This document shows positions 733 through 37,511 of a stretch of 59,826 bases of DNA, one piece after another (the stretch's first letter is position 1; each line of letters starts with the position of its first letter). The notes beneath the pieces were generated by a model. The model saw nothing but the letters and a program-made list of their open reading frames with translations. It searched no databases and had not been told where the DNA came from. A program made the position numbers and the translations under genes. This DNA is from a virus (taxonomy: Duplodnaviria > Caudoviricetes), in IMG/VR virus record IMGVR_UViG_3300042362_000235, positions 1-59,826 of that record; one strand, 5' to 3'.

Positions 733-1794
733 TCATCCGACCTTGACCCGGATGGGCTCGACGCCCCGCGGGTTGGCGTACAGGTCGCTCATCCGCTCGG
801 TCTTGTGGCCGAGCAGCGCCTTGGTGTCGACGCCGCCCTGCTCGCGGTACAGGCGCTTGGCCAGGCTGCGGAGTTCGTGGAAGGTCGGCGCTGCTTCGTC
901 CGGGATGCCGGCCATCTCGCGCGCCCGCGTGAACGCCTTGCTCACCGTGTCAGCGAACACCGGCGAGCCGGCAGGCGCGTTGCCGTAGGGCGTGACGTGG
1001 TGAATCAGCCAGGGCGACACGACGCCAGTGCGCTGGGCCAGCACCTCGGCCAGCGACATGCCGACGACCTCCAGGCGGATCGAGGTCGGGATGGCCACGC
1101 GCGCGCCAGTCTTCGGCCTGGTGATGGTCAGCCAGCCATCGGCCACGTCGGCGCGCCGCAGGCCCACCAGCGTCGAGCGGTCGGCGCCGGTCAGCAGGCC
1201 GAGCAGCATCGCCCGGGGCAGCCAGCCCGCGGCCTTCGTGGCGTGCTCGAGGATCGCGCGGAATTGCTCCAGGGTCAGCCGGCCGCGCTTCACGGCGACC
1301 TTCGGCCGGTCGGTGATCTCGGCCGGGTTCGACTCCATCCATCCCAGCGCCTGGCCCTTGCGGCACACAGCCAGCAGGCGTGATCGCAGCGCCTCGGCGG
1401 TGCGTGCCTTGCCGGCCTCCTTGACCTCCTCGAGCAGCTCGGCAACGTCCCGCACGCGCAGCGCAGCGCAGTGGATGTCGCCGAGCTTCGCGCGGATCTT
1501 GGAGTCGAGGGTCTTGGTGCTCTTGCGGGTGTTGCGGTTCGCCGGCTCCGGCATCTTGTCGAGCAGGTCGGCCACGGTCTGCGATGCGCCGGCCAAGCGG
1601 TCGACCAGCGTCGTGCGGTGCTCGGCGATGTACAGGTTGGCCGCAGTCGCTTCTGACTTGGCCACCGCCAGCGGCACGCGACCGATCGGCAGGATGCGGC
1701 CGTCCGGGTGCTCCCAGGCGAAGTAGCCCGGGCGGGGCTCGCGCAGGCCGCGAGGCCAGTCGCGGCGCTTGATCGAGCGGCGTGCAGCGTTCAT
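733..1794 (-). CDS. int: Lambda-type tyrosine integrase
   Basis: N-terminal arm-binding domain ([11 protein letters not shown]), PTFHELRSL (HxxR), LLGH, C-terminal catalytic Tyr (DLYANPRG); ATG overlaps the xis stop. Confidence 0.93.
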
Positions 1795-1991
1795 GCGGCC
1801 CTCAGTCGGTCGACGAGCGACTCGGGCGCACCGGTGATGCGGCGGGCGTCCTCGCGCACGTAGTAGGTGCGCCCGACCTTCTCGGGCAGCGGGTGGATCT
1901 CGCCATCGCGCGCCCAGCGGCGCAGCACCCACAGCGACGGCGGCGGGTCATAGTGCCGTGCGGCCCAATTTTCTAGGGGCACTTTCTTCAT
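1791..1991 (-). CDS. xis: Excisionase
   Basis: LENWAARHYDPPPSLWVLRRWARDGEIHPLPEKVGRTYYV resembles lambda Xis; lies immediately upstream of int. Confidence 0.88.
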   Translation of the reverse strand: MKKVPLENWAARHYDPPPSLWVLRRWARDGEIHPLPEKVGRTYYVREDARRITGAPESLVDRLRAA

Positions 1992-2713: not shown

Positions 2714-3585
2714 TTGCCACCCCCGGCGCGCTCGGTAGCTTCCATGTCGGCCACGAAGTCGTCCTGCGACGGATCGGGCGGTGGCGGTGCGCCGCCGGTG
2801 ATCTCGCCGGTGTCGGCGTCCACGGTGACCGGCTGCAGGGGGTTGTCCTGCGGCATGTCCAGATCGACGCGCTCGTCCTGCTCGACGGCGCTGGCCAGTT
2901 CGATGCTCACCGGCAGGTACTTGAACAGCCGGCGGATGACCGTCTTCTTGGCCATCTCCTCGTAGTGATCGACCCACGGCCCCGACTGGCCCGCCTTGCT
3001 CTTGGCGCGCACGCGCTCGATCTCGGCGCGGCTCATGACCTCGAACTGGGTGCCGCCGTCCTTGAGCTTGGCCACGGCGTAGACGAACCGCAGCGGGCCG
3101 CGGTCATCTGCCTCCCAGTCGGGCTCGTGCGTCAAGTCGGGGTTGAGGCCGAGGGCGACGTGGAAGCGATCGGCCGCGTAGACGGCGCGGGCCTCCAGCG
3201 ACAGGATCTGGCCGGAGCGCCGGGCGAGGTCGATCATGCCGCGGTAGCCGACGATGAACTGCACTTCGGTGATGCCCTTCTTGCGGTTCTCGAAGGGCAG
3301 CAGGTAGGCGTGGCCCAGTGCGCCGCCGGGCTCAAGCCCCAGCTGCGCGCACTGCATGATCGCGCCGAGGAAGCTGGCCTGGTCGCAACGACCCAGCGCC
3401 GGCACCTTGCGGACCTCGGTGAGGGCGATGCGGGCCAAGCGGTCGGCCGTCATGTGCTTGGGCAGGGCCAGCGCAAGCTGGGCCTTGATCTTGGGGTCGG
3501 TCAGCAGGCCGGCGATGGTCGTCGGCTGCTGCTGGGCGTTGGCCACCTTGCCGGTGACGTGCGCCTTGAGGGCGGTCGTACTCAT
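2710..3585 (-). CDS. recT: RecT single-strand annealing protein
   Basis: ALPKHMTADRLARIALTE, AQLGLEPGGALGHAYLLPF, MAKKTVIRRLFKYLPVSIE. Confidence 0.95.
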   Translation of the reverse strand: MSTTALKAHVTGKVANAQQQPTTIAGLLTDPKIKAQLALALPKHMTADRLARIALTEVRKVPALGRCDQASFLGAIMQCAQLGLEPGGALGHAYLLPFENRKKGITEVQFIVGYRGMIDLARRSGQILSLEARAVYAADRFHVALGLNPDLTHEPDWEADDRGPLRFVYAVAKLKDGGTQFEVMSRAEIERVRAKSKAGQSGPWVDHYEEMAKKTVIRRLFKYLPVSIELASAVEQDERVDLDMPQDNPLQPVTVDADTGEITGGAPPPPDPSQDDFVADMEATERAGGGK

Positions 3586-10751: not shown

Positions 10752-11746
10752 CCATCCCCGCCCCGTACCCACCAGACACCCGTGCCCGCGGCTGGCGCTA
10801 CGAGCTCGACTACGAGCGCATCCGCCAGTCGGACACCTGGGCACTGGCTGGCCCCGAGGCGCGCCCCTGGCTGCTGATGCTGTGGCTGGTCGCGTGGGAG
10901 CAGACCCCGTGCGGGTCGCTGCCGGGCGACGAGGCGCTGATCGCGGCCCGCATCGAGATGCCGGCGAAGCTGTGGGCCAAGCACCGCGCCGTGCTGTTGC
11001 GCGGCTGGGAACTGGCCGACGACGGGCGCCGCTACCACCGGGTGCTGACCGAGCGCGTCATCGAGATGATGGAGGCGCGGCGCCGGGAGTCCGACCGGAA
11101 GGCGCTGGCCCGCGCCCGGAAGGCCGCGGGAGAGGCCAAGGAATCCGGAGGAAGTCCCGCGGATGTCCCACGGGACAACCAAGGGACACCCACGGGACTC
11201 CACCCGGAATCCGACACCGGAACCGGAACCGGAACCGGAACCTATATGGGTGGTGAATACAACACCACACACTGCGACTCTCCGCGCGCGCCCGCGAGCG
11301 ACCCGCCGACGCCCGACGATCCGCCGCCGAAGGATCCGCCCCCCGAGCAGCAGCCACCCCGCCCGAGCGCCGCAGCGCAGGTGTGCATCGCGTTGCGCGC
11401 CGCCGGTGTGGCCGACGTGAACCCGGGCCACCCTCGGCTGCAGACGCTGCTGGAGGCCGGTGCTACCGCCGCGGAGTTCGTGGGGTTCGTCGACAAGGCC
11501 CGAGAGGTCGCGCCAGGCCGCGAGTTCGCCTACGTGCTGGGTGCCGTGGAGGGCGCCCGCACCCGCGCCGCTGCCGCGGCGCCCGGGCTGCACCGCGGGC
11601 CGATGCCGGCTGGGCCGCCCCGCACAACGGAATCGGCGCGGGATCGCGCAGCACGGAAGCGCGTCGAGGCATTCGCCCCTGACGCGGCGGTGAAGGTGGG
11701 TACGTTCACGGAGGTCGTCGATGTCGTTGCCCGAAGCGTGGGTTAA
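10748..11746 (+). CDS. Replication initiator (YdaU/DUF1376-like N-terminus)
   Basis: WLVAWEQTPCGSLPGDEALIA motif; internal iterons. Confidence 0.75.
   Translation: MTIPAPYPPDTRARGWRYELDYERIRQSDTWALAGPEARPWLLMLWLVAWEQTPCGSLPGDEALIAARIEMPAKLWAKHRAVLLRGWELADDGRRYHRVLTERVIEMMEARRRESDRKALARARKAAGEAKESGGSPADVPRDNQGTPTGLHPESDTGTGTGTGTYMGGEYNTTHCDSPRAPASDPPTPDDPPPKDPPPEQQPPRPSAAAQVCIALRAAGVADVNPGHPRLQTLLEAGATAAEFVGFVDKAREVAPGREFAYVLGAVEGARTRAAAAAPGLHRGPMPAGPPRTTESARDRAARKRVEAFAPDAAVKVGTFTEVVDVVARSVG
11156..11199 (+). repeat. Putative origin iterons (four ~11-bp units) inside the initiator gene
   Basis: CCCGCGGATGT / CCCACGGGACA / ACCAAGGGACA / CCCACGGGACT in tandem. Confidence 0.6.
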
Positions 11747-12257
11747 GGCGCTGTTCATGCGGTTGACGGTGCGCTACGGCGAGGCGTTCTTTCGCCAGTA
11801 CGCAGGGATTGATCCCGCCCTCGTCCAGGCGGACTGGGCGCAGGTGCTCGACGGCACAAGCGGCCACTCGATCGAGTACGCGCTGCGCAACCTCCCGAGC
11901 GACTGGCCGCCCACGGCGCTGAAGTTCCGCGACCTGTGCCGCCAGGCGCCTGCCAAGCCGGTGCCTGCCGAGCAGCGGTTGGGGTACACGCCGGAGAAGC
12001 GCGACCCGCAGCGTGTGGCCGCGATGGTGGCCCAGGTGCAGATGAAGGCCCGGGAGGATCGCCGCAGCGAGCTCACGCCAGCCGAGCGGTGCTACGTCCA
12101 GATCATGAGCCTGACCAACGACGGGAAGAAGTTGAGCCCGCCGCAGAAGGCGCGGATCGAGGCGATGCGCAACGCCGGCCTGCTGCGCCGCTACTTCCCG
12201 GAGGAGGTCGTGCTGCGCGAGGAGGCTGCCGTGCCGATCAAGGCCATTTCGGCGTGA
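11721..12257 (+). CDS. Replication-associated protein (P-like position)
   Basis: WVKALFMRLTVRYG..W...PPTALKFRDLC; follows the initiator. Confidence 0.6.
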   Translation: MSLPEAWVKALFMRLTVRYGEAFFRQYAGIDPALVQADWAQVLDGTSGHSIEYALRNLPSDWPPTALKFRDLCRQAPAKPVPAEQRLGYTPEKRDPQRVAAMVAQVQMKAREDRRSELTPAERCYVQIMSLTNDGKKLSPPQKARIEAMRNAGLLRRYFPEEVVLREEAAVPIKAISA

Positions 12258-12520
12258 CCCCGGAGGAGCCCCAGCCATGTCCGTCCCCACCGGATCCAAC
12301 CTCGCCGCCATGTCCGGCCTGCTTGCACGCCGCCGCCACGCCCTTCGCCGGGGGCTTCCGCATGCAGTGCTTGGCCTGCTGCACGCGGCTGGTGCTGTCG
12401 GCGCACCCGCTGCGCCACGCGGCCCAGGCCATGCTGGCCGCGATCGCGCGGCACCCGGACGCCCCTGGCCGGGCGCAGGTGTTGGCATCCGTCCGCCTGG
12501 CCCTGGAGAGACGCCCCTGA
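12254..12520 (+). CDS. Hypothetical Cys-rich protein
   Basis: CxxC...CxxC; coupled GTG start. Confidence 0.45.
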   Translation: MTPEEPQPCPSPPDPTSPPCPACLHAAATPFAGGFRMQCLACCTRLVLSAHPLRHAAQAMLAAIARHPDAPGRAQVLASVRLALERRP

Positions 12521-12572
12521 CCCTCGACGAGATCGCCGTGGCTCTGCGCCACGGGGTGAGGCTCTGACCGCC

Positions 12573-13055
12573 ATGCGCAAGCGTTCCAAGTACCGCCCGC
12601 GCGCCGTGCTGAGCGACCCGCTGCTGCTGCTGCGCCCGGCCCCGAAGGCCGACGCCGATGCGGTGATGCTCCGGTTCCTCACGGCGCTGGAGACGGTCGC
12701 CGGCGGCAGCCACCCGGGCGAGGCCGAGTGGCGCGACCTGGCCGACGCGATCAACACCGTCGAGACGCTGGCCCTGACGATGCACCGGCTGGTGCCCCAG
12801 GAGGTCATGCCGACCGTCAACGCGGCCATCGCCGCGATGGTGGGCGCCGCCAACCGCTACCGGGCTGGGGGCGGCATGCGCGTAGACGGCCCCGGGCTGG
12901 TGGCGCTGCGCGAGGTCGTCGGCATCTACGGCCAGTGCCTCGACGAACTGACCGGCCGCGAGATGGCGATGGCCCGCGCCGAGACAATCCGCCGCATGCA
13001 GGCCGTGCTGCGCCGCCGCAGCGAGGACACCGACGCCAAGGTGGTGGCCCTGTGA
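12573..13055 (+). CDS. Conserved hypothetical phage protein
   Basis: MRKRSKYRPR N-terminus; typical high-GC3 codon use. Confidence 0.65.
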   Translation: MRKRSKYRPRAVLSDPLLLLRPAPKADADAVMLRFLTALETVAGGSHPGEAEWRDLADAINTVETLALTMHRLVPQEVMPTVNAAIAAMVGAANRYRAGGGMRVDGPGLVALREVVGIYGQCLDELTGREMAMARAETIRRMQAVLRRRSEDTDAKVVAL

Positions 13056-13420
13056 CGCTGCGCCTGGACACGTTCAAGCGGGCGCCGAAGTACGGCAACC
13101 GCCGGGTGCCGGCCAGCGACGGCGGCAAGCCCTTCGACAGCCAGGCCGAGGCCCGCCGCTACGCGGAACTGCTGCTGCTGCAGCGCGCCGGCGAGATCAG
13201 CGGCCTGCAGCGCCAGGTGCCCTACGAGCTGGTGCCTGCGCAGCGCGACAGCGCCGGCAAGGCCGTGCGTGCGGTCACCTACGTGGCCGACTTCCACTAC
13301 CGCACCAAGGACGGCACCGCCGTCGTCGAGGACGTGAAGGGCGTGCTGACGCCCGACTACCGCATCAAGGCGAAGCTGATGCTGTGGCGCCACGGCATCG
13401 AGGTCAGGGAGGTGCGCTGA
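13052..13420 (+). CDS. DUF1064 family nuclease-like protein
   Basis: KYGNRRV...FDSQAEARRY...YVADFHY...VVEDVKG. Confidence 0.85.
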   Translation: MTLRLDTFKRAPKYGNRRVPASDGGKPFDSQAEARRYAELLLLQRAGEISGLQRQVPYELVPAQRDSAGKAVRAVTYVADFHYRTKDGTAVVEDVKGVLTPDYRIKAKLMLWRHGIEVREVR

Positions 13421-13989
13421 TGGGGCGCCCGAGCAAGCTGGCGCCGCACCAGTGGGCCGAGGTCGAGCGCAGGCTGCTGGCCGGGGAGGGAGCGAGCGCG
13501 CTGGGACGCGAGTTCGGCGTGAGCGAGGCCGCGATCCGAAAGCGGTTCGGAGAAACGCGGAAGTACGAAAGTGCGAACGTCCAAAAGACGGCCCGGCTGG
13601 TGGCCGACGCCAACGACGCGCTCGAAGCCCTGCCGCCTGCGCAGCGCCAGGTGGCCGTCGCCCTGGCCGACGAACTGCGCGCGATCAGCCGCAACCTCGC
13701 CGCCGCGGCCCGGCTGGGCAGCGCCACGGCACAGATCCTGGCCCAGCAAGCGCACCAGCAGGCGCAGGACGTGAGCGACGAGGCCGGGCTGCGCGCGGTG
13801 GCCATGCTGACCCGCACCGCCAACGAGGCCGCGGCCACGGGCCTGCAGCTGCTGCGCAGCAACGAGAACGTGGTGGCCGACGAGGAGGCCGAGCGCGGGC
13901 GCCAGGCGCGCCGTGTGACGCGGATCGAGATCGTGCCGATGGAGCCCGAGAATGATCGGGTGATGGATGCACCTCGAGGCGAGCGATGA
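13420..13989 (+). CDS. Probable terminase small subunit
   Basis: MGRPSKL, N-terminal HTH, C-terminal VTRIEIV; last core gene before terL. Confidence 0.65.
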   Translation: MGRPSKLAPHQWAEVERRLLAGEGASALGREFGVSEAAIRKRFGETRKYESANVQKTARLVADANDALEALPPAQRQVAVALADELRAISRNLAAAARLGSATAQILAQQAHQQAQDVSDEAGLRAVAMLTRTANEAAATGLQLLRSNENVVADEEAERGRQARRVTRIEIVPMEPENDRVMDAPRGER

Positions 13990-14507
13990 GCGACTTTCTG
14001 TCAATGCAGGCGCAGGCGCGTAGCGATCTCACCGCGCGGTTCACATGCGAGCACGAGCATACCGAGGTTCGGCGGCGCGTCATCAAGGGCGGCGCCGTGC
14101 AGTACGTCCGACAGTGCCTGCGCTGTGGTGAGCCGCAGGGCAACCCCATTGCCAAGGCCAAGGTGTTGGCCGAAAGCGGCGGCGAGCCACCCGATTTCGA
14201 CGACGAACTGAACGAGCAGTGGAAGGCCGAGTACGCCGCCGGGTGGGAAGACATCCGCAAACGCTTCGACCGCGAAGCGTTCTTGAAGGAGTGGTATGCC
14301 GACTATCTGCGCTCTCCGGAGTGGGGCAGACGGCGAGCCGCGGTGATGAGGCGCGCCAACGGCGTGTGTGAGGGGTGTGGCGAGTGCCCCCCGACTGAGG
14401 TGCATCACCTGACCTACAAGCACGTCGGCCGCGAGTTCCTGTTCGAGCTGGTGGCGCTTTGCGAGGGTTGCCACACGCGCGCCCATCAAGACGAGGAGGG
14501 GGTGTAG
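13986..14507 (+). CDS. HNH-type endonuclease
   Basis: YLRSPEW...CEGC..EVHHLTY...LCEGCH. Confidence 0.8.
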   Translation: MSDFLSMQAQARSDLTARFTCEHEHTEVRRRVIKGGAVQYVRQCLRCGEPQGNPIAKAKVLAESGGEPPDFDDELNEQWKAEYAAGWEDIRKRFDREAFLKEWYADYLRSPEWGRRRAAVMRRANGVCEGCGECPPTEVHHLTYKHVGREFLFELVALCEGCHTRAHQDEEGV

Positions 14508-14566
14508 CCCATGCGGTTGGCCCTTGCGACGAGCACGCCGGCATGACTGGCATGCGTCTTGGAGAC

Positions 14567-15424
14567 ATGATGGAGCACCTGAATTACTGCCGCCAACTGA
14601 TGAAGCATTGCAAATCAATGCTGGAGGCGCCCAGCCTTGATCCCGTGGCACGCGCCCTACTCAGCCGCGTGGTGGACTTGCACGGCGCTTCAACCAAGTT
14701 TCATCTTCCCGTTGGCGGGAGGTTGTTCGATGATCCGCAGTACCGCGCGCTGGACGAGTCGCAGCCGCTGCACCTGCCCTACCCATGCATTGCGCTGGAA
14801 TACCAGAGCGGCGGCCGAGAGCGCAGACCAGATGAGCCGATGTGGGGGCGCAACGGACCGACATACGAAGACGATTCCTTCGTCATCGCACCCAAGCGGG
14901 TTGTATTTGCTAGAGAACAAGGCGACTGGATCGTCATCAACGTCGCATTCTGGACGACTGACGACGCGGTTTGGCGCGTGCTCCCAGAGTGCGCGATACC
15001 CAGGACGGGCTATCTTGACCGCGCGAAAGAAGATCGCGGCCGGGTACCGATCAGGTTTGGGCTGGCAGACGAGCGCGTGCCGCTGTCGGACTACATGGAT
15101 GAACTGGGCGCGCTGCTTTGTTTCCTGAACGCGCTGCAGTGTTCAAACGTCCATGTCGAGCGCAGCGAGCCCAAGAAGGCCGGCAAGAAGATTAAGGCCG
15201 CGCTGCCTTTCGACACATACCACTTCCTGACGATTGAGGCACCTGGCAAGGCTGGGTGCGGCACACCGACTGGCGGACACCGTTCGCCCCGCGAGCACCT
15301 GCGACGCGGGCACATCCGTCGCCTGGCAGACGGACGGCGCAGTTGGGTGAACGCCACAGTGGTCGCGGCAGGGCGTGGCGCTGGCGTGGTGACAAAGGAC
15401 TATGCGGTGCGGTGCGCTGCATAA
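14567..15424 (+). CDS. Hypothetical phage protein with C-terminal HxRRGH motif
   Basis: SPREHLRRGHIRR; lower GC; stop TAA lies in the attC1 core (GCATAAC). Confidence 0.7.
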   Translation: MMEHLNYCRQLMKHCKSMLEAPSLDPVARALLSRVVDLHGASTKFHLPVGGRLFDDPQYRALDESQPLHLPYPCIALEYQSGGRERRPDEPMWGRNGPTYEDDSFVIAPKRVVFAREQGDWIVINVAFWTTDDAVWRVLPECAIPRTGYLDRAKEDRGRVPIRFGLADERVPLSDYMDELGALLCFLNALQCSNVHVERSEPKKAGKKIKAALPFDTYHFLTIEAPGKAGCGTPTGGHRSPREHLRRGHIRRLADGRRSWVNATVVAAGRGAGVVTKDYAVRCAA

Positions 15425-15470
15425 CGCCCGAGTTCAGCCGCCGTAGGTCGGCTGGAACGAAGTGTTAGGC
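15419..15470 (-). mobile_element. Integron attC site 1 (52 bp)
   Basis: Minus strand GCCTAAC-acttc-GTTCCAGC-CGA-CC-TAC-GG-CG-GCTGAAC-tcgggc-GTTATGC: R'', L'' with extra C, unpaired A, L', R'. Confidence 0.88.
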
Positions 15471-15487
15471 AGCATGTTGGAGAAACG

Positions 15488-15805
15488 ATGAGACAGACGC
15501 ACGAATGGCCCGGCCACTGGACGCGAGTAGCGCCCAGCGTGGAAGACCACCCGCAGGGCGGCGAACTGGCCTGGATGGCGCGTGGCTACCCGTTCACCCG
15601 CCCGGTGCTGGCGCGCTCGAATGTGGGCGTGAAGCGTGCGCCGACGTGGGCAGCAATGGAGCCGGTGTACCAACAGTTTGTGCGCGTCGAGTTGATGGCC
15701 GACAACTTCCACGGCCAGGACGCCAGCAACTTCGGCTGGTTCCGCGACTTGGAGTGGCTGGGGCCGCTGGTGCTGCCTAACGCCCGAGGTAAGCCGCGCC
15801 GCTAG
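15488..15805 (+). CDS. Cassette ORF, hypothetical
   Basis: GGAGA RBS; between attC1 and attC2; stop codon falls in the attC2 loop. Confidence 0.65.
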   Translation: MRQTHEWPGHWTRVAPSVEDHPQGGELAWMARGYPFTRPVLARSNVGVKRAPTWAAMEPVYQQFVRVELMADNFHGQDASNFGWFRDLEWLGPLVLPNARGKPRR

Positions 15806-15831
15806 GCGTCGGCTTGAGCGAAGTGTTAGGC
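15775..15831 (-). mobile_element. Integron attC site 2 (57 bp)
   Basis: Minus strand GCCTAAC-acttc-GCTCAAGC-CGA-CGCC-TAGC-GGCG-CG-GCTTACC-tcgggc-GTTAGGC. Confidence 0.9.
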
Positions 15832-15855
15832 GTCTTGGTGAGCGGAGAGGAAACG

Positions 15856-16158
15856 ATGGAATACACAGCGACTTTGCCGACCGAGGTTGGCGCCTACCGG
15901 CACCGCTGGTCCGATGCGCGCGGCACACTGCGAGAGCAAGTGCTGTTCGTTGGCTACACCAACGCCAGCGCGCCTCGCTTGCAGGGCGACAGGCCAAACG
16001 CCTACATGCCGCGCAAGCTGAAGTGCTGCCGGCCTGACGAGCACCTACACGCCGACAGACTGACGCCGGCCGAGTGGGGCGGGTGGTGGGCGCGCATTGA
16101 GACGCCTAACGCAGAAGTAACCGGCCTTGGCCGCAACAGGAGCAACGATGAACGATGA
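15856..16158 (+). CDS. Cassette ORF, hypothetical
   Basis: GGAGAGG RBS; reads into attC3 and stops in its loop. Confidence 0.65.
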   Translation: MEYTATLPTEVGAYRHRWSDARGTLREQVLFVGYTNASAPRLQGDRPNAYMPRKLKCCRPDEHLHADRLTPAEWGGWWARIETPNAEVTGLGRNRSNDER

Positions 16159-16198
16159 ACTTTCGCCGGCCAAGGTCCGGTTGACTGACGGGTTAGGC
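16104..16198 (-). mobile_element. Integron attC site 3 (95 bp)
   Basis: Minus strand GCCTAAC-ccgtc-AGTCAACC-GGA-CCTTGGCCG...CGGCCAAGG-CC-GGTTACT-tctgc-GTTAGGC. Confidence 0.88.
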
Positions 16199-16456
16199 CC
16201 GCTGGTGGATGCCGAGATGGCGGCTTACTACGAGGGTGAATATGGTGACCACAGCACGGCCCGCGCCCGACTGCTGGACTTTGCGCGGGCGGTGATCGCA
16301 TCCGAGTGCGTGGATCTGAGACAGGCCGCCGAGTACGCGGCGCACAAACTTGAAGGGGCGCGCATCTGGAACGGGCAAGAGTGGCACTACAACCCGCTGC
16401 ACCCGCTGCACTACCGGAGCGCGCTGGAGCGCCTGCGCGATGCGCTGCGGGCCTAA
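16148..16456 (+). CDS. Cassette ORF, hypothetical
   Basis: AGGAG RBS and ATG inside the attC3 loop; stop TAA inside the terminal core GCCTAAC (16451-16457). Confidence 0.7.
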   Translation: MNDELSPAKVRLTDGLGPLVDAEMAAYYEGEYGDHSTARARLLDFARAVIASECVDLRQAAEYAAHKLEGARIWNGQEWHYNPLHPLHYRSALERLRDALRA

Positions 16457-16474
16457 CGCGAAATAGACAAACCC

Positions 16475-17809
16475 GTGGCCGAAACCCGCCGCATCGAGAT
16501 CCCACCCAAGCTCATCCCGGTCTTCTCCGGCGCCGCCGACGTGCGCGGCGCCTGGGGCGGACGCGGCTCCGGCAAGACGCGCAGCTTCGCCAAGATGACC
16601 GCGGTGCGCGCCTATGCGTTCGCCCAGGCCGGCATCAGCGGGCAGATCCTGTGCGGCCGGCAGTTTCAGAACAGCCTGGCCGACAGCTCGCTGGAGGAGA
16701 TCAAGCGGGCGATCGAGGACGAGCCCTGGCTGGCCGACGCCTTCGAGGTCGGGGAAACCTACGTGCGCACGCGCGACGGCCGGGTGAGCTACACCTTCGC
16801 GGGCCTTGAACGGAACATCGACAGCATCAAGTCCAAGGGCCGCATCCTGCTGTGCTGGGTGGACGAGGCCGAAGGCGTCAGCGACCACGCCTGGGACGTG
16901 CTGGCGCCGACGCTGCGGGAGGAGGGTGAGGGCTGGTCGGCCGAGCTATGGGTGACGTGGAACCCGAAGCGCCGCGGCTCGGCCACCGATCGCCGGTTCC
17001 GCCAGGCCAAGGATCCGCGCATCAAGGTCGTCGAGCTCAACTGGCGCGACAACCCGCGCTTCCCGGCGGTGCTGGAGCGCCAGCGCCAGCGCGACCTGGC
17101 CGAGCGGCCGGACACCTACGACTGGGTGTGGGAGGGCGCCTATGCCACGACGGTGGCCGGCGCCTACTACGCCAAGCACTTGACCGCGGCGCGCGCGGCT
17201 GGCCGCATCGGCCGGGTGGCGCCCGATCCGCTGATGACCCTGCGGGCGTTCACCGACATCGGCGGCACGGGCAAGCGCGCCGACTCCTTCGTCTGGTGGG
17301 TGGCCCAGTTCATCGGGCGCGAGGTCCGGGTGCTGGATCACTACGAGGCGGTGGGCCAGCCGCTGGAGGCCCACCTGACCTGGGCGCGCAACCGCGGCTA
17401 CACCCACGAGCGCATGCAGGTCTGGCTGCCGCACGACGGCGTGACCCACGATCGCATCTACGACGTGACCTACGAGTCGGCGCTGACGCGCGCGGGCTAC
17501 AACGTCACCATCGTGCCCAACCAGGGCGCCGGCGCGGCCATTGCCCGCATCGAGGCGCTGCGTCGGGTGTTCCCCTCGACGTGGTGGGACAGCGAGCGGT
17601 GCGCCGCCGGCCTCGAGGCGCTGGGTTGGTACCACGAGAAGCGCGACGAAGTGCGCGACGTGGGCCTGGGGCCGGAACACGACTGGTCGAGCCACAGCGC
17701 GGACGCGGCCGGGATGATGGCCATCGTCGCCGAGGATCACATGCGCAGCGGCACCCAGTCGGCCGCGGCGCAACTGTTCAAGCGGCGCCGCAGCGGCATG
17801 GCCGTCTGA
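16475..17809 (+). CDS. Terminase large subunit (PBSX-like)
   Basis: Walker A GGRGSGKT, Walker B CWVDEAE, TWNP, C-terminal HDWSSHSADA nuclease motif. Confidence 0.93.
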   Translation: MAETRRIEIPPKLIPVFSGAADVRGAWGGRGSGKTRSFAKMTAVRAYAFAQAGISGQILCGRQFQNSLADSSLEEIKRAIEDEPWLADAFEVGETYVRTRDGRVSYTFAGLERNIDSIKSKGRILLCWVDEAEGVSDHAWDVLAPTLREEGEGWSAELWVTWNPKRRGSATDRRFRQAKDPRIKVVELNWRDNPRFPAVLERQRQRDLAERPDTYDWVWEGAYATTVAGAYYAKHLTAARAAGRIGRVAPDPLMTLRAFTDIGGTGKRADSFVWWVAQFIGREVRVLDHYEAVGQPLEAHLTWARNRGYTHERMQVWLPHDGVTHDRIYDVTYESALTRAGYNVTIVPNQGAGAAIARIEALRRVFPSTWWDSERCAAGLEALGWYHEKRDEVRDVGLGPEHDWSSHSADAAGMMAIVAEDHMRSGTQSAAAQLFKRRRSGMAV

Positions 17810-17832
17810 CCCCCCGCCGGCCCTGGCCGGAA

Positions 17833-17853
17833 TCGTGACAAGCATGGCACCGT
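17833..17853 (+). promoter_or_regulatory. Putative late-promoter motif, copy 1 (TCGTGACAAGCATGGCACCGT)
   Basis: Recurs at 22356, 23813, 23835, 37519 and 40360, each time upstream of a virion gene. Confidence 0.65.
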
Positions 17854-17884
17854 CGCCCGCGGTTCAACGCTGCGGGGCTCGCCA

Positions 17885-18301
17885 ATGGGCGTCACTCTCG
17901 ATCTGCGCCGGGCGCATCTCAGCCGCTACCACGGCGACATCCTGGCGATCTACACCTGGGTCAACGACGAGCGCGCGCTGGTGCTGATGCCGGCGTTCCG
18001 CAAGGGCGCGCCCTGGTACATCGTGTGCGAGTCGGCCGCGTTCAAGTACGACGACCCGACCTACCTGGCCACGCAGTGCGTCAAGGCGTGCGAGGTGCTG
18101 GGCCTGGAGCCCAGCCGCGCCAACTGGGTGCGCGTGGCGTCGATCATCCACGATGGGCTGCCAGACCTCATCCGCATGCCGTCGGCGCCGCCGGCCGAGT
18201 ACCTGCGCGGCTCGATGGGCGCGATGGAACTCCGCGCCGACGGGCAGGTGATTGCCGGCGACGACATCCGCATCGAGCGCGAGGGCGCTACCTATGGCTG
18301 A
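17885..18301 (+). CDS. Conserved hypothetical protein upstream of the portal
   Basis: Strong GC3 bias; overlaps the portal start. Confidence 0.75.
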   Translation: MGVTLDLRRAHLSRYHGDILAIYTWVNDERALVLMPAFRKGAPWYIVCESAAFKYDDPTYLATQCVKACEVLGLEPSRANWVRVASIIHDGLPDLIRMPSAPPAEYLRGSMGAMELRADGQVIAGDDIRIEREGATYG

Positions 18302-20651
18302 CCCGTTCGACGTGTTCCCGCGTCGCGGCCGGGCGCCTGGCGACGACTACTTCCGCCGCCAGGGTGCCAGCAGCGGCGCCGATGTGGTCGAGCGCCGCGT
18401 GCATCGACTGGACACCGAGGAGGCGCGCGCCGAACTGCGCCAACTGCTGGAGTGGTACTTCTACGAGCGGGAGCGGCAGAGCCTCAATCGCCTGGACATG
18501 GCGATGGACTGCGACGTCTACGACAACCTGCAGTGGGATCCCGAGGATGCCGCGGCCCTGCGCGAGCGCGGCCAGATGCCGCTGGTCTACAACGAAGTGG
18601 CGCCGATGGTCGACTGGCTGATCGGCACCGAGCGCCGGTCGCGCGTGGACTGGCGCGTGCTTCCCCGCACCGAGGATGACGTCGAGCTGGCCGACGTGAA
18701 GACCAAGGTCTTGAAGTACGTCAGCGACATCAACCGGGTGCAGTTCCTGCGCAGCCGGGCGTTCGCGGACGCGATCAAGAGCGGCGTGGGCTGGATGGAC
18801 GACGGCGTGCGCGACGACCCGACGCAGGACATCCTCTACTCCAAGTACGAGGACTGGCGCCAGGTGCTGTGGGATTCGTCGGCCTACGAGCACGACCTGT
18901 CTGACGCGCGCTATCTGTTCCGCTGGCGCTGGGTGGACGAGGACATCGCGCTGCTGATGTTCCCCGACCGCGCCGCGGCCATCCGCGAGGCCGTCGAGGA
19001 GGGCACCCACCTGACCACCGACGGGTGGGAAGAGGAGACGTGGTACACGGCCCAGGATCTGCAGCAACTCAAGACGGGCACCATCTACGCGGCCGGCGTG
19101 GGTCAACTGGCCGACGCCCGGCGCCGCCGGGTCAAGCTCATCGAGTGCCAGTACCGCAAGCCGGCCCAGGTGCGCATCGTGATGGACGGCCCGCTGCAGG
19201 GCGCCGTGCTGAGCCCGCGCGATAACGCGCTGGCCGAGGCGGTGGGCAAGCTGGGCAGCGCCGTGGTGGACAAGCTGATGATGCGGGTTCACTTCGCCGT
19301 GTTCACCGACAGCCGGCTGCTGGCGCTGGCGCCGAGCCCGTACCGCCACAACCGCTTCAGCCTGACGCCGATCTGGTGCTACCGCCGCAGCCGTGACCGC
19401 CTGCCCTACGGGGTGATCCGCCGCGTGCGCGACATCCAGCAGGACCTGAACAAGCGCGCGAGCAAGGCGCTCTTCATGCTCAACTCGAACCAGATCCTGG
19501 CCGAGGAGGGCGCCACCGAGGACTGGGACACGCTGCGCGACGAGGCCGATCGGCCCGACGGCGTGCTGGTGTTCAAGCCTGGCCGCAAGGTGGAACTGCG
19601 CCGCGACACCGACGCGGCCACGGGCCAACTCAACATGATGGAGATGGCCACCCGCAGCATCCAACGCAGCGGTGGCGTGGCCGACGAGAACATGGGCCGG
19701 CAGACCAATGCCGTGTCCGGCGAGGCGATCAAGGCGCGGCAACTGCAGGGCTCGATCGTCACCACCGAGCCCTTCGACAACCTGCGCCTGGCCACGCAGG
19801 AGCAGGGCGCCAAGCAACTCAGCCTGGTCGAGCAGTGGTACACGCAGGAGAAGGTGGTGCGCCTGACCGGCGCCAAGGGCGCGCTGGAGTGGGTCAAGGT
19901 CAACGTGCCCGAGGTGCAGCCCGACGGCTCGGTGCGCTTCATCAACGACATCACCAGCAGCATGGCCGACTTCGTGGTCAGCGAGCAGGACTACGCCGGC
20001 ACGCTGCGCCAGGTGATGTTCGAGGCGCTGAACCAGCTGGCCACACGGCTGCCGCCGGAGGTCAGCCTGCGCATCATGACAATCGCCATGGAGTTCTCGG
20101 ACTTGCCCAACAAGGACGAGATCGCCGAGCAGTTCCGCAAGCTCACCGGCGAGCGCGACCCGAACAAGCCCATGTCGCCCGAGGAGCAAGCCCAGGCCGA
20201 GCAGCAGGCCATGGCCCAGGCCGAGGCGATGCAGATGCAGCGCGAGGCTGCGCGCGCGGCGCTGGGTGAACAGCAGGCCAAGGTGCGCGAGCTCAACGCC
20301 CGCGCCGCCAAGCTCGAAGCCGAGGCGCAGGCCGCGATGGCCGCTGCGGCCGGCGGTGCGGGTGACGGCGACATGCAGCAGGCCATCCTGCAAGTGCGCT
20401 CCGAGGCCGCGGCCGAGATCGACCGCGTGAGCGAGGAACTGCGGCGCGCCCAGGCTGCACTGGCCAACCGCACGATCCAGATCAACCGCGACGCCGACAC
20501 CAAGGTCGAGGTCGCCCGCATCGACGCCGACGCCAAGACAAGGGTGGCCGGGATCCAGGCCGCGAGCGACCGGGCCATTGCACAACTCGAACGCCGGCTC
20601 GAGGACATGGCGCGCACGATCAATCGCGACACCGAGACTTCAACATCATGA
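18294..20651 (+). CDS. Portal protein (P22/N4-like)
   Basis: QWDPED..RERGQMPLVYN, PYGVIRRVRDIQQDLNKR, SGEAIKARQ; C-terminal coiled coil. Confidence 0.88.
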   Translation: MADPFDVFPRRGRAPGDDYFRRQGASSGADVVERRVHRLDTEEARAELRQLLEWYFYERERQSLNRLDMAMDCDVYDNLQWDPEDAAALRERGQMPLVYNEVAPMVDWLIGTERRSRVDWRVLPRTEDDVELADVKTKVLKYVSDINRVQFLRSRAFADAIKSGVGWMDDGVRDDPTQDILYSKYEDWRQVLWDSSAYEHDLSDARYLFRWRWVDEDIALLMFPDRAAAIREAVEEGTHLTTDGWEEETWYTAQDLQQLKTGTIYAAGVGQLADARRRRVKLIECQYRKPAQVRIVMDGPLQGAVLSPRDNALAEAVGKLGSAVVDKLMMRVHFAVFTDSRLLALAPSPYRHNRFSLTPIWCYRRSRDRLPYGVIRRVRDIQQDLNKRASKALFMLNSNQILAEEGATEDWDTLRDEADRPDGVLVFKPGRKVELRRDTDAATGQLNMMEMATRSIQRSGGVADENMGRQTNAVSGEAIKARQLQGSIVTTEPFDNLRLATQEQGAKQLSLVEQWYTQEKVVRLTGAKGALEWVKVNVPEVQPDGSVRFINDITSSMADFVVSEQDYAGTLRQVMFEALNQLATRLPPEVSLRIMTIAMEFSDLPNKDEIAEQFRKLTGERDPNKPMSPEEQAQAEQQAMAQAEAMQMQREAARAALGEQQAKVRELNARAAKLEAEAQAAMAAAAGGAGDGDMQQAILQVRSEAAAEIDRVSEELRRAQAALANRTIQINRDADTKVEVARIDADAKTRVAGIQAASDRAIAQLERRLEDMARTINRDTETSTS

Positions 20652-32700: not shown

Positions 32701-35700
32701 AACGGTTCGGGCGGCGTTTTCCCGCAGCTTTCGCGCCTGATCTGGTCGACGGCACCAAACAGCAACCTATTCGTCCTTCGCGGCGGCACGCTGAATTCCG
32801 TGGCAGTTCAGCAGACCAACCGCCACACCGGCACCGTAGACGGCGACAACGACGGTTCCAGCAATACGACTGCAGCCGACTTTGTCTTTGGCATCGCCAG
32901 CGGCATCTACATCGACACCGAGCAGCACGCATGGGTGCCGGTCACCCCGGGCGAGCGCATCTGCGCCTCGGCCTACGTTGCCACGCACCGCTGCCGGACG
33001 CTGCTGTTCATTGCCTTTCAGTCGTTCGATGACAACGGGAACGTCACGGAGTCTTACGCAGGCTTTGTGGAGCCGACCTCCAGAACGACGTGGTCCGCAG
33101 ACGGGCAGACCCGTCGACTTGACCAGTTCCAGCGCCCCTACGTCGTTGCCACGGTGCCTGCCGGGGCAACTCGCGCGGGCCTTCGCATCCGCAAGTACAA
33201 CACGGTTGCCGGTCAATCAGATTCGTGGGTCTGGATCGCCGGCCCGCAGATCGAGAAGGTCGCCGCCAACACTACCGGCCCGAGCCCGTACATGCCCGGC
33301 CCGCCGTCCGACACCCGGCAGCTTGGCTTTGCAGGCGACATCGACGCTCAGCGCAACAGCCGCATCACGGTCGACGGCAGCGGCGTGCTTCAGGGCGTTG
33401 GTACGACCGGCGTCACCGTCGCCAACAACCAGATCGGCATCAACGCCAGCGGTCAGGTCTATGGGCTCGGTGCTGGCAACGGGATCGCGGTCAGCAACAA
33501 CCAGATCACCGTCAATTCAGACGGCCAGCTTGCCGGCATTGGATCGTCGGGGGTCGTTGTCGACGTTGACTACGCCCCGAGCGACTCCAACGCCATCACC
33601 GACCCCAACTTCACGAAGTACGCCACCGGCCGGCTGGGTCACTTCAACCTATGGAATGGCTGGTCGATCACATCCACCGCGGGAGAAAACAACTCCCCGG
33701 GCGCGATTCTCAATGTCACGGGGGGCGGGGTATTTCGGGACATCTACCATCGCCGCCGCATCGTGGCCGAGCCTGGAGAGCGCTGGTACATCCGTGCCCG
33801 TATTCGCGTCAGCGCATCGTTTACCGACGGCGGCGGCCTGATGCTTGGCTGCAGCTCGCTCAACTCCAGCGGCACCGACTTGGCGAACTGGCCTGCCATC
33901 AGCGTCAACACTAGCGTCAGCGGGGGCATTGCCCGAAACACCTGGGTGTGGGTCGAGGGCGAGATCACAACTTCGCCGTCGCTTGCCATTGCATACGTCC
34001 AGCCTTGGATCAGCGTTCGTGAAACTGCCGCGGACGGCACTGTGCGAGTGTCGTACTGGTACTTCGGCAAAGTGGCCCAGGGCGCGACTGTCGGCGCAAC
34101 GTGGGGCACGAACGTCTCAGGCCGACCGTCGAACCTTGCCGGCCTGTCGGGCAGCGAGGCGATCCAGAACACACAGATCACGGTCAGCAACGGCGCCATC
34201 CAGGGCATCGGCACAGGCGCCGGCACGCTGATCGACGCCACGAAGGTCGCGGGCGACAACCTGATCCCTGACCCGACCTTCCTGAACCCGGCCTACTGGA
34301 CGGGCGGGTGGGAAGCCACCCCAGGCAGCACCTTCGCGTCGATGTCCGCGTTCCGGTGGGTCAGCAGCGGCGCTGCCAACGAGCCGCCAGCAGCGCTGCA
34401 GTTAAACAACTCCGCCGGCAGCGGCGACTTCACCGGAGGACGCATCGTTGTCGAGCAAGGCGGCACATACCGGTTGCGGATGCGCGTTTACAAGGCTGGC
34501 GCGTGTTCGGGCGTGGTGTGGGCGGGTTTGCACGTTCCCAATCAGGCGTGGTGGACGGCGCTGCCGCAGAACACTCCCGGCGACCCGACGGCCGGTATCA
34601 ACTGGTCAGCCATTCCGCAAGACGCCTGGGCGACCTATGAGTCGTTCTTGACCGTCACTGGGGCCGGTACGGCGCAGATGCAGCCCCGCATCCGCAACGT
34701 CATCACGGCTGGCAACTTCTACTTCACGATGGAGTTGCAGCGGGCGACGACCGCTGAACTGTTCCGCGTGCAGTACGGGACCGGCAACCTGATGCGGAAC
34801 TCCAGCTTCGAGCTTTACACGGGCACAAGCGGGATCCCGGATACGTTCCAGCTCATCGGCGCGAACGGTGCGACGGTGACGCCTTCGGTCGTGACGTCCC
34901 CCGCCCTGCACGGAAGCCGCGCGTTCCAGATCGCCGTGACCAGCACGACTGGCGCGTCCGGCGTCGGCGTGATCTACGGCCAGACCGCGGCCGATGCGGT
35001 CACTGTGGTCGAGGGGCTGCGGTACTGTCTGTCGGGCTACTTCCGCAGCACAACGACGGCGTACAGGGCGCGCCTGGACATCCTGTGGTACTCCGACGCA
35101 GCCGCGACCGTGCAGGTTGGCTCGACCGTTGCATACGACCAAGCTCTGACGACGGCCAACGCTTGGGAGCGCGTCACGGCGCCTGCCGTTGTCGCGCCGT
35201 CAGGAGCCGTGCGGGCGCGCGTGCGCGTTGGGCTGCAGCGGCCCAGTACCGGAGACACGACCCTGGGAACGGTCCAGATTGACGCCGTGCAATTCCAGGC
35301 GTCTGACGCCTCCACTGCGTACAACGTCAGCCAGTTTGACAAGGTCGGAACCGACAACCCGATCAACACGGCCAACATCTCGACGTACATCGCGGCTGGC
35401 GCCATTGGCAACGCCTACATCGGCAACTTCATCCAGTCGACGAACTTCAACGGGGTCATCGACGAGAGCGGCAACATCACCAGCAACGGCACTGTTGGCT
35501 GGGCTATTGGCAAGGGCGGCCAGCTCGTAGCGCACTCCGGCACGTTCCGGGGGACGGTGTCGGCAGGAAGCAGCCCTGCGGTCAGTGGCAACACGATGAG
35601 CGGCTCGGGTGCCGTATTCAACCCGAGCGGCACGTTCGCCATCGGCAACTCGTCCGGCAACCTGTCCTTCAACGGCACGACGCTGACGGTCAACGGCAAC

Positions 35701-36701: not shown

Positions 36702-37511
36702 ATGCCCAAGTCCACCCGCCGCGTCACCTTCACCCGCTCGGTGACCTTCACCTTCACGGCCGAATTCGCCAACTACGTCGGGCAAACCGACGCCGACGCC
36801 CTGACGGCGGCCAACCTGCCCGGCGGCGTCAACTCCATCGGCGAGCTGCTGGCCGGCTCCCTGGCAGCCAACGGGCAGCGCTCCCCGGGCGCTTGGAGCG
36901 TGTCTGGCTCGGGCGTCTTGGTCGAGCCCATTGGCCTGTTCGTCCCCGGCTTCGTCTACACGATCGGCCAGCGCGTGGCGCCCTCGAGCAACCCAGCCGA
37001 CCGCATCTTCATCGTGTCTGCGCGCACCGGCAACTTCCAGTCCGGCGCCAGCGAGCCGACCTGGAACACCACCATCGGGCAGACCACGGCCAGCACCAAC
37101 GTCACCTTCATGGCGGTAGCCAAGTTCACCGCCCCGCTGACGCGAGCCAACTCGACGGCCTACACCGCCGGCCAGATCATCCGGCCGGCGGCCAACTCGC
37201 TCAAGGAGTTCCTCGTCACCACCGGCGGCACCTCCGCGGCATCGGCGCCCAGCTTCGTCGGCGCCAACGACGCCATTGGCGCCAGCTTTGCCGACGGCAC
37301 GGCGACGCTGCTGTGCATCGCGGGCGCAGCCGACTATGCCGCGCTGACCAGCTACTTCCTGGGCGACGTCGTGACACCCAACAGTTCCAGCTCGGAGGAG
37401 TACGTCTGCGTCACCGCCGGCCGCACCGACACGTCGGCCAGCACGGCGCTGACGGCCACGGTGGGCAACAACGTCACCGTTGGCACCGCGGCCTTCCGCC
37501 GCGTGGTTTGA
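36702..37511 (+). CDS. Virion protein with CBM5/12-like repeats
   Basis: YTIGQRV / YTAGQII / YFLGDVV repeats; AGGAGG RBS. Confidence 0.6.
   Translation: MPKSTRRVTFTRSVTFTFTAEFANYVGQTDADALTAANLPGGVNSIGELLAGSLAANGQRSPGAWSVSGSGVLVEPIGLFVPGFVYTIGQRVAPSSNPADRIFIVSARTGNFQSGASEPTWNTTIGQTTASTNVTFMAVAKFTAPLTRANSTAYTAGQIIRPAANSLKEFLVTTGGTSAASAPSFVGANDAIGASFADGTATLLCIAGAADYAALTSYFLGDVVTPNSSSSEEYVCVTAGRTDTSASTALTATVGNNVTVGTAAFRRVV

Follow-up and report, generated by a model that had tools for sequence, protein, structure and literature searches.

Integrons are generally seen as devices of bacteria. Since 2023, attC clusters that lack an integron integrase (CALINs) have been known from phage genomes (Qi, Rajabal, Ghaly, Tetu, and Gillings, PMC9892861). 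The parts of that paper on which we draw report 17 CALINs in 10,705 phage genomes, both temperate and virulent, and recombination of 5 of 6 tested phage attCs with attI1 through the integron integrase IntI1; DNA methylases are among the cargo, and it is left open whether phage attC clusters are debris or working platforms. Here, we describe a cassette array in the 59,826-nucleotide (nt) Caudoviricetes sequence IMGVR_UViG_3300042362_000235 (positions 1 to 59,826 of that IMG/VR record; the whole stretch analyzed is called the window below). The window is an integrated P22-like prophage, and the only tyrosine recombinase in it is of the lambda type. The array lies between genes for a small terminase subunit (terS)-like protein, an HNH endonuclease, and a 285-amino-acid (285-aa) protein on one side and the terminase large subunit gene (terL) on the other, and it is a genuine integron-type platform. 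We consider it quite probable that this platform, consisting of an attI-like site and three cassettes without an integrase, is serviced by the integron integrase (IntI) of the host in trans.

Like the phage CALINs in the cited parts of PMC9892861, the locus combines attC arrays and small cassettes with the lack of an intI gene. It differs from them, as far as those parts go, in having a cognate host integron in the same assembly, in starting at an attI-like site common to at least eight phage arrays, in carrying its genes on the attC bottom strand, and in showing cassette turnover at one junction between near-identical phages. [quoted passage not shown] Both prophages thus hold an attI and cassettes near structural or packaging genes, but M16-3, considered to be cryptic, also has its own intI, whereas the prophage in the window has no intI and another attI type (GTCTA, 6 nt, G|TTA). 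An initial annotation of the window, made from the sequence alone, overrated the novelty of the array, since CALINs and attI-bearing arrays in phages are already present in what we cite of PMC9892861. What is new is the attI-bearing, reverse-coded architecture, the counter-defense-flavored cargo, and the cognate host integron. Among the papers listed by our searches, we found no description of an attI-bearing, reverse-coded phage array, although the supplementary tables of PMC9892861 may list related phages. Exchange of cassettes with the host integron would be a further distinguishing feature of this variant.

Among bacterial systems, the sedentary chromosomal integrons of the same bacterial order, in which 165 of 401 genomes sampled (including the unpublished G304 and G036) encode an IntI above the profile cutoff, have the same attC family, attI layout, and G|TT junctions as the window. 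Their open reading frames (ORFs) lie mostly on the top strand, whereas in the phage arrays, Shine-Dalgarno (SD) sequences precede only bottom-strand ORFs, and there is neither an intI nor an integron promoter Pc. A class 1 integron with aadB and attI1 (plasmid NZ_CP018956, locus L235) has an aadB attC with 83% identity to the second attC of the window, and its attI1 simple site, read from the plasmid, has the same design as the window junction, with an L box, a short spacer, and G|TTAGGC. Class 1 integrons are otherwise unlike the window, being mobile resistance platforms with an adjacent intI1 and top-strand genes driven by Pc. Anti-phage defense genes have been reported in integron cassettes (bioRxiv 10.1101/2024.07.02.601686 and 10.1101/2024.07.02.601719). 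To judge from the parts of those preprints cited here, defense cassette arrays and the phage arrays are alike as stores of small phage-host conflict genes, but the former have a bacterial carrier and defense genes, and the latter have a phage carrier and, in sister arrays, recognizable cargo that appears counter-defense-like.

The array contains three attC sites

The motif GCCTAAC/GTTAGGC occurs six times in the window, all within 15464-16457, against 2.18 expected; six occurrences were reached in 1 of 100 shuffles. These repeats belong to three imperfect palindromes and a lone core at 16451-16457. The palindromes lie on the minus strand, the first starting at 15419, just where the initial annotation had placed it:

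15419-15470, minus strand: attC 1, at the distal end of the array; R' is GTTATGC; 59 bits with covariance model R1; fold z of -3.1
15775-15831, minus strand: attC 2, 57 nt; bulged C in L'' and a bulged A; 67.9 bits with R1
16104-16198, minus strand: attC 3, 95 nt; 70 bits with R1

Read along the minus strand, each site has a 7-nt core, a 5-nt spacer, an 8-nt box with a bulged C, a second bulged base, a variable loop, a 7-nt box, a spacer, and a GTT core, and all three follow the attC layout R''(RYYYAAC)-spacer-L''...L'-spacer-R'(GTTRRRY). The bulged C and A on the minus strand, which give the sites their polarity, appear as G and T on the plus strand, and this polarity agrees with that of the aadB attC relative to aadB. 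Folding of the three hairpins against shuffled sequences gave z values of -2.8 to -4.6, and no hairpin was found behind the lone core at 16451 (fold z of +0.45).

As a substitute for the curated IntegronFinder/HattCI models, we built the covariance model R1 from 12 attCs of this genome with the R and L helices fixed. In its alignment, 94.1% of cells are paired and 8 of 10 L-stem pairs have changes on both sides, values that no shuffle or slid register came near. The three window sites score 59 to 70 bits on the minus strand versus 7 to 14 bits on the plus strand. With filters off, nothing else in 11000-18000 exceeds 10 bits, and as a negative control, R1 had no match at an E value of ≤0.1 in 968 kb of TerL-related bacterial loci. 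The match of attC 2 (minus strand) to the aadB attC of class 1 integrons extends over its full length and recurs in 3,132 plasmid records (BLAST). In the class 1 integron inspected, intI1 is divergent and the match follows closely behind aadB, on the aadB coding strand. This orientation is independent of R1 and identifies the window minus strand as the attC top strand. Based on these results, the three sites are attCs and putative substrates of an integron integrase.

With three attCs in one orientation (minus) within 780 nt and no match to the integron integrase profile TIGR02249 on the 59.8-kb contig, the locus is a CALIN, and the integron-type cassette array without an integron integrase that the initial annotation saw in the prophage is borne out by attC layout, covariance, and the aadB match. 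It is not a complete integron, as intI lies on another contig of the host assembly (C260) with its own attI and cassettes. The window integrase itself has no TIGR02249 match at an E value of ≤0.001, and in this respect too, the initial annotation, which called the sole tyrosine recombinase lambda-type, was right: the enzyme (733-1932) is an ordinary phage integrase.

On its other strand, the loop of attC 3 carries the SD sequence and ATG of the third cassette gene, and this loop motif recurs in C260 (1200-1295) and in C295 (34926-35028), a second prophage of the host. Such sites form a long-attC subfamily in which the bottom strand of the loop holds an SD sequence, an ATG, and the first 15 to 18 codons of the cassette gene (window, 16104-16198; L007, 1200-1295; L006, 7927-8029; L131, 2685-2786; L146, 1173-1297; L110, 3623-3760).

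Cassette boundaries and reverse-coded genes

G|TT crossovers at 15425|15424 and 16457|16456 delimit the array, which divides into three cassettes, each with one ORF:

15425-16456, minus strand (attC top strand): whole array, 1,032 nt; 65.5% G+C versus 68.9% for the contig
15425-15780, minus strand: cassette C, 356 nt; attC 1 and the body of ORF1
15781-16109, minus strand: cassette B, 329 nt; attC 2 and the body of ORF2
16110-16456, minus strand: cassette A, attI-proximal, 347 nt; attC 3 and ORF3
15488-15805, plus strand: ORF1, 105 aa; SD GGAG; G+C by codon position of 0.68/0.50/0.85
15856-16158, plus strand: ORF2, 100 aa; with an SD sequence; extends into attC 3
16148-16456, plus strand: ORF3, 102 aa; start within the loop of attC 3, stop at the TAA in the junction core

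We recovered all three pairs of cassette-specific 11-bp complementary ends that the initial annotation had listed. The ends of cassette C (15464-15474/15771-15781) are complementary at 11 of 11 positions, those of cassette B (15825/16110) form a 20-nt arm whose first 11 nt pair perfectly, and those of cassette A (16189-16202/16447-16460) pair over 14 nt at 93%. The 4-nt extensions beyond the 7-nt cores pair across cassettes and not across attCs. This complementarity across each unit is the mark of units that once existed as circles closed at the G|TT crossover. All three units, like those in the other IMG/VR arrays, have G|TT bounds and a 5' end that pairs with their own R'', and the ORF1 and ORF2 cassettes also occur as the same unit between different neighbors.

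ORF1 and ORF2 have no stop codon of their own. The last 8 codons of ORF1 come from attC 2 (15781-15805) and the last 16 of ORF2 from attC 3 (16110-16158), so that the C-terminal tail varies with the neighboring cassette. Consistent with this, the families of ORF1 (23 homologous proteins) and ORF2 (75 homologue clusters) are conserved up to the core-site codons (...LPN and ...TPN, respectively) and then run into many different tails.

The initial annotation overlooked the coding direction. ORF1 to ORF3 are on the attC bottom strand (the window plus strand), are preceded by SD sequences, and have G+C contents that decrease in the order third, first, and second codon position; cassette genes on this strand point in the same direction as phage transcription. 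Several phage-array cassettes have an SD sequence and ATG in the attC loop and take their stop from the TTA of the G|TTA junction, and in 7 of 9 phage arrays, the junction TAA is the stop of the attI-proximal bottom-strand ORF. By a count of longest ORFs and SD sequences, which is crude in DNA of 65 to 70% G+C, 31 of 36 cassettes from eight bacterial arrays have their longest ORF on the top strand, whereas the 37 cassettes of nine phage arrays divide into 9 top, 10 bottom, and 18 unclear; an SD sequence precedes the longest bottom-strand ORF in 17 of these 37 cassettes and the longest top-strand ORF in none. This count replaced strand calling by G+C at codon positions, which gave nonsensical results, such as 45-aa ORFs in preference to the SD-led 105-aa ORF.

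An attI-like junction next to terL

The terminal core at 16451, reported in the initial annotation, is present, but the site around it had been missed:

16451-16473, minus strand: attI-like junction; a hairpin-less core (R box), then a conserved GTCTA-type L box 6 nt away

The junction ends 1 nt before the terL start, and its core (16451-16457) lies 18 nt before terL. The arrays of the window and C295 end identically, in the core, 6 nt, and TAGAC, and the array on the IMG/VR contig L131 ends in a variant of the same sequence. A pattern scan of IMG/VR returned 16 contigs, in 7 of which the motif borders on correctly oriented, R1-matching attC arrays; 2 of these 7 duplicate C295 and L131, and 3 more motif matches fall at the edge of the locus. 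In total, eight distinct phage arrays have the junction motif. The gene on the attI side varies among phages, being terL, xis and int, small ORFs followed by terS, or a helicase gene, and the motif therefore belongs to and travels with the array and not with the neighboring gene.

The same sequence is found in bacteria. In the same order, TAAC, 6 nt, and TAGAC occur ∼150 nt upstream of intI in 6 of 30 intI loci, which is the expected position of attI, and attC arrays begin just beyond this site in 4 of the 6 (L201, L204, L198, and L210). Alignment of 10 phage junctions with 7 bacterial attI sites (alignment A3) gave GTCTA, 6 nt, and G|TTA, with G.C.A, 6 nt, and GTTA invariant. The host's own attI is a G+C-richer version of the phage site with GCCCA in place of the phage GTCTA. 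Judging from these comparisons, the terminal core is part of an attI-like site, with an R box and an L box at a fixed short distance, that is apparently homologous to the intI-adjacent sites. We call the site attI-like because there is no intI beside it or elsewhere in the window and because IntI binding to it is putative.

The host integron and a second prophage array

The host assembly is a metagenome bin of 304 contigs (88% complete and 2.3% contaminated). A host IntI, as postulated in the initial annotation, is encoded on contig C260 (1754-2698; also delimited as 1625-2701). This protein scores 456.8 bits against TIGR02249 (cutoff, 265), has no internal stops, and is the sole true IntI in the assembly. 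It aligns over its full length with VchIntIA (2A3V, residues 5 to 320; E value, 6.5e-90) and has the features of integron integrases, including the IntI-specific insertion. We consider C260 chromosomal because purU-like and class IV aminotransferase genes adjoin intI. Three attCs of the same family lie upstream of intI in the canonical divergent orientation, and the attI-proximal cassette of this integron has the phage-type layout, with a bottom-strand ORF and an SD sequence and ATG in the attC loop.

R1 has 13 matches in the genome, namely, 3 in the window, 3 beside IntI, 6 in C295, and 1 solitary. C295 is a second prophage, and its six-attC array lies next to an excisionase-like gene and a phage integrase gene. 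At 35403-35783, it contains a DNA copy of cassette C with 86% identity. Outside the arrays, we observed a solitary attC-like hairpin on contig C270 of this genome (G000; 3390-3518, plus strand), with an R1 score of 37.7 bits, a fold of -61.8 kcal/mol, and a degenerate 3' core.

Occurrence and turnover in related phages

Arrays were found upstream of terL in 5 of 80 IMG/VR loci with related TerL proteins, in the same orientation and with cassette-specific ends. None of 10 array-bearing phage records, three of them CheckV complete, encodes an IntI above the cutoff. Of 200 other genomes of the host's family, 2 had a TerL match, and no attC was found there or in the loci of the closest TerL relatives (L008 and L088) with filters off; the best R1 match in that scan (16.3 bits; E value, 0.049) was taken as chance.

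We placed contigs from public sequencing runs on 13000-18500 (for runs X2 to X4, uncovered parts and small joints with a side of <30 were left out). Run X4, from another study, contains a phage with ∼97 to 98% identity in the flanks. One of its contigs (2,225 nt, with a depth of 41.6 equal to that of the flanks) consists of other sequence, an attC 2-like site, 523 other letters, and 16448-16795, indicating a different cassette at the same junction. In run X2, also from another study, cassette B has unlike sequence on both sides, and another contig runs from terL across 16450 into another cassette. These contigs show that cassettes have turned over at this one junction among close relatives. 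Thus, some relatives lack an array, some carry a different one, and some differ in the cassette at the junction, and the identical gene content that would have spoken against the initial annotation was not observed.

Further evidence for movement of units comes from ORF1, whose cassette occurs with the same attC and different neighbors on both sides in L222, L224, L225, and L226 (metagenome and viral contigs). More distant ORF1 homologues (55 to 61% identity; L227 to L234) are not in cassettes; among 10 neighbors of the homologue in L228, there were 2 weak PHROG matches. All-against-all BLASTP of 269 ORFs from 13 arrays recovered one cross-array family (window ORF1 and C295), and shared cassette content between arrays is therefore rare. 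In two phages (L146 and L169), the genomes have 47 to 49% G+C and the attCs 57 to 71% G+C, and their cassettes look as if they were imported from a G+C-richer pool.

Mechanism and alternative explanations

In the mechanism we favor, attI x attC recombination would add cassettes singly at the attI-like site of the phage, and attC x attC recombination would remove or exchange them. Because the phage lacks IntI, the enzyme would be the chromosomal IntI of the host, and its action in trans is the most economical inference. The cassettes would be expressed not from an integron Pc but by rightward phage transcription that crosses the array and enters terL. We speculate that late transcription also exposes the recombinogenic bottom strand as the non-template strand. 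More tentatively, and with somewhat more doubt than confidence, we suggest that temperate phages with their own attI and a private pool of reverse cassettes (counter-defense cargo such as an Acb2/Tad1-like sponge, Lar, and orphan methylases) borrow host IntI to load, drop, and reshuffle these genes, with back-flow into the host integron.

Several observations weigh against servicing by the host. The host attI has GCCCA where the phage site has GTCTA, and recognition of the phage site by host IntI is thus not assured. The phage junctions were partly selected with the motif itself, and it is the window, C295, L131, and the bacterial sites that lend independent support. The initial annotation linked cassette recombination to the SOS response, but no LexA box (consensus CTGT-N8-ACAG, ≤1 mismatch) was found in C260 1501-1800. 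The intI gene is on a different contig of the bin (C260, 6.3 kb) from the prophage. No attC was found in 80 TerL-related bacterial genome loci, and L008 and L088 have no arrays; with arrays in few relatives, the platform has a patchy distribution and might be spread through recombination between phages. The run data consist entirely of contigs and not reads, and we detected no recombination event, that is, no circles and, in run X1, no intra-sample polymorphism beyond the C295 copy. Finally, own-end pairing would survive homologous exchange within attCs and thus dates the origin of the cassettes, not any recent activity.

Much of this would also fit a static relic, in which an ancestral phage took up attI and cassettes once from a chromosomal integron (by illegitimate or homologous recombination), differences arose by ordinary phage-phage recombination with attCs and flanks serving as patches of homology, and IntI has no current role. 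The patchiness of the arrays (5 of 80 IMG/VR loci versus 0 of 80 genome loci), the placement of the array module beside different genes in different phages, the joint lack of the HNH gene, 285-aa gene, and array in the closest relative, and the retention of own-end pairing under homologous exchange are all consistent with such a history, and the cited part of PMC9892861 proposes off-target homologous or illegitimate recombination for the entry of integron parts into phages. We nevertheless regard a relic as unlikely, since the cassettes that adjoin the attI-like motif in the window, C295, L131, X2, and X4 differ, yet the joint falls at the identical nucleotide each time, where there is only ∼7 nt of homology, and since the host has a matching IntI and an attI-proximal cassette with the phage-type layout. 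An assembly chimera, in which a repeat-rich integron fragment was misjoined into a phage contig, would be in keeping with the tendency of attC repeats to break assemblies, the short intI contig, and the double depth of 15422-15555, which is common to the window and C295. Such a misjoin is extremely improbable given that Logan contigs of run X1 span both junctions (although X1 may be the source sample), that arrays adjoin the same terL junction in X2 and X4, which are from other studies, and that eight distinct phage arrays have the junction motif in common.

It is also very improbable that the units were made and moved by the lambda-type integrase of the prophage (733-1932) or by its HNH endonuclease. 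Both genes are in the window, but the integrase lacks similarity to TIGR02249, arrays are also present in phages that have other integrases, no other array locus examined has homologues of the HNH and 285-aa genes, and the sites match the attCs of class 1 integrons. The hairpins lie between genes of a late operon and by packaging genes, where attC-like regulatory elements of phage RNA or DNA (terminators or signals for packaging or replication) might be expected. A weak scan of 13300-16700 found no plus-strand T-run terminator; its 0 promoter-like and 4 terminator-like sites, all of the latter on the minus strand, were not counted as support. Sites of the identical family are present beside the host intI and in seven other bacterial arrays, in canonical orientation, and cassette-specific ends have no regulatory rationale; we therefore give regulatory elements hardly any credence.

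If the host integrase does service the arrays, phages would gain fast, modular swapping of small accessory genes, some of them counter-defense-like, and integrons and phages would exchange cassettes in both directions. Such exchange would bear on the spread of anti-defense genes and on the generation of the cassette pool, and would partly explain the many cassettes of unknown function with reverse-oriented genes. With counter-defense genes as cargo, the phage arrays would be the mirror image of defense-carrying bacterial integrons. The locus offers a tractable natural case, as a chromosomal integron with an intact IntI occurs in one assembly with two prophages whose arrays are of the same family and have a cassette in common.

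Cargo of the arrays

ORF1 to ORF3 have no Pfam or PHROG match, and the AlphaFold2 model of ORF1 (predicted local distance difference test score [pLDDT], 83.6) had no PDB and no BFVD match at an E value of ≤0.001. Among 56 bottom-strand ORFs of phage arrays, Pfam identified one each of Acb2/Tad1, Lar, N6_N4 and D12 DNA methylases, SpoU methylase, and PAPS reductase, and bottom-strand ORFs matched 44 PHROG families. The C295 array includes a cassette (36715-36999, equivalent to L006 9716-10000) encoding an Acb2/Tad1 hairpin-domain protein (PF24729, 52.1 bits; cutoff, 27), and a partial Acb2/Tad1 copy with 60% identity lies beside the ORF1 homologue in L222 (1331-1489). Based on these similarities, the recognizable cargo of sister arrays (Acb2/Tad1-like, Lar, and DNA methylases) appears counter-defense-like. 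By analogy, our best guess is that ORF1 to ORF3 may also act in counter-defense.

Prophage setting

The main genes around the array, from left to right in the window, are as follows:

Left edge of the window: 3' end of uvrB, host flank
733-1932, minus strand: phage integrase (PF00589, 45.3 bits in a direct Pfam scan)
Between the integrase and helix-turn-helix (HTH)/terS-like genes: RecT and YqaJ
13384-13989: HTH/terS-like gene
13986-14507, plus strand: HNH endonuclease, without a counterpart in the closest relative (L008)
14567-15424, plus strand: 285-aa gene, abutting the distal attC; member of a large family
16475-17809, plus strand: terL (PF04466, 70.5 bits; phrog_3717)
Right of terL: P22-type portal, capsid, and tail-tip protein
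From 58108 onward: host genes

The HNH gene, 285-aa gene, and array have 62 to 65.5% G+C versus 69 to 72% for the backbone. L008, which is closest by TerL (84% identity), shows synteny on both sides, but in it terL and the terS-like gene overlap directly. It lacks the HNH gene, 285-aa gene, and array jointly, and we therefore interpret these as one insertion block; among the relatives examined, none was found that lacks the array alone.

The 285-aa gene takes its TAA stop from the core of the distal attC, in the phage-side half of the R' of attC 1. Its family has 2,647 representatives at an E value of ≤0.001. The protein model (pLDDT, 82.4) has no fold match, Pfam gave none even at an E value of ≤10 and none for 29 family members, and the best PDB profile match had an E value of 0.32. 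An "AcrVA2-like" label from the Atlas (13 to 38% of the members of the nearest clusters) had a recognition value of 1597, below the reliable range, and was kept as an unconfirmed lead only. The last 11 nt of the gene match the own end of cassette C at 9 of 11 positions, for which we have no explanation.

A six-frame search of the assembly with PF00589 returned 12 places and missed the window integrase, so a blank from that mode of search is not proof of absence. The right part of the prophage encodes two giant proteins, a 1,907-aa protein with a ddrB-ParB domain (40411-46134) and a 3,747-aa polyvalent protein (46135-57378) with Eco57I-type methylase, SNF2/ResIII helicase, LPD3, ART-PolyVal, and LPD38 domains.

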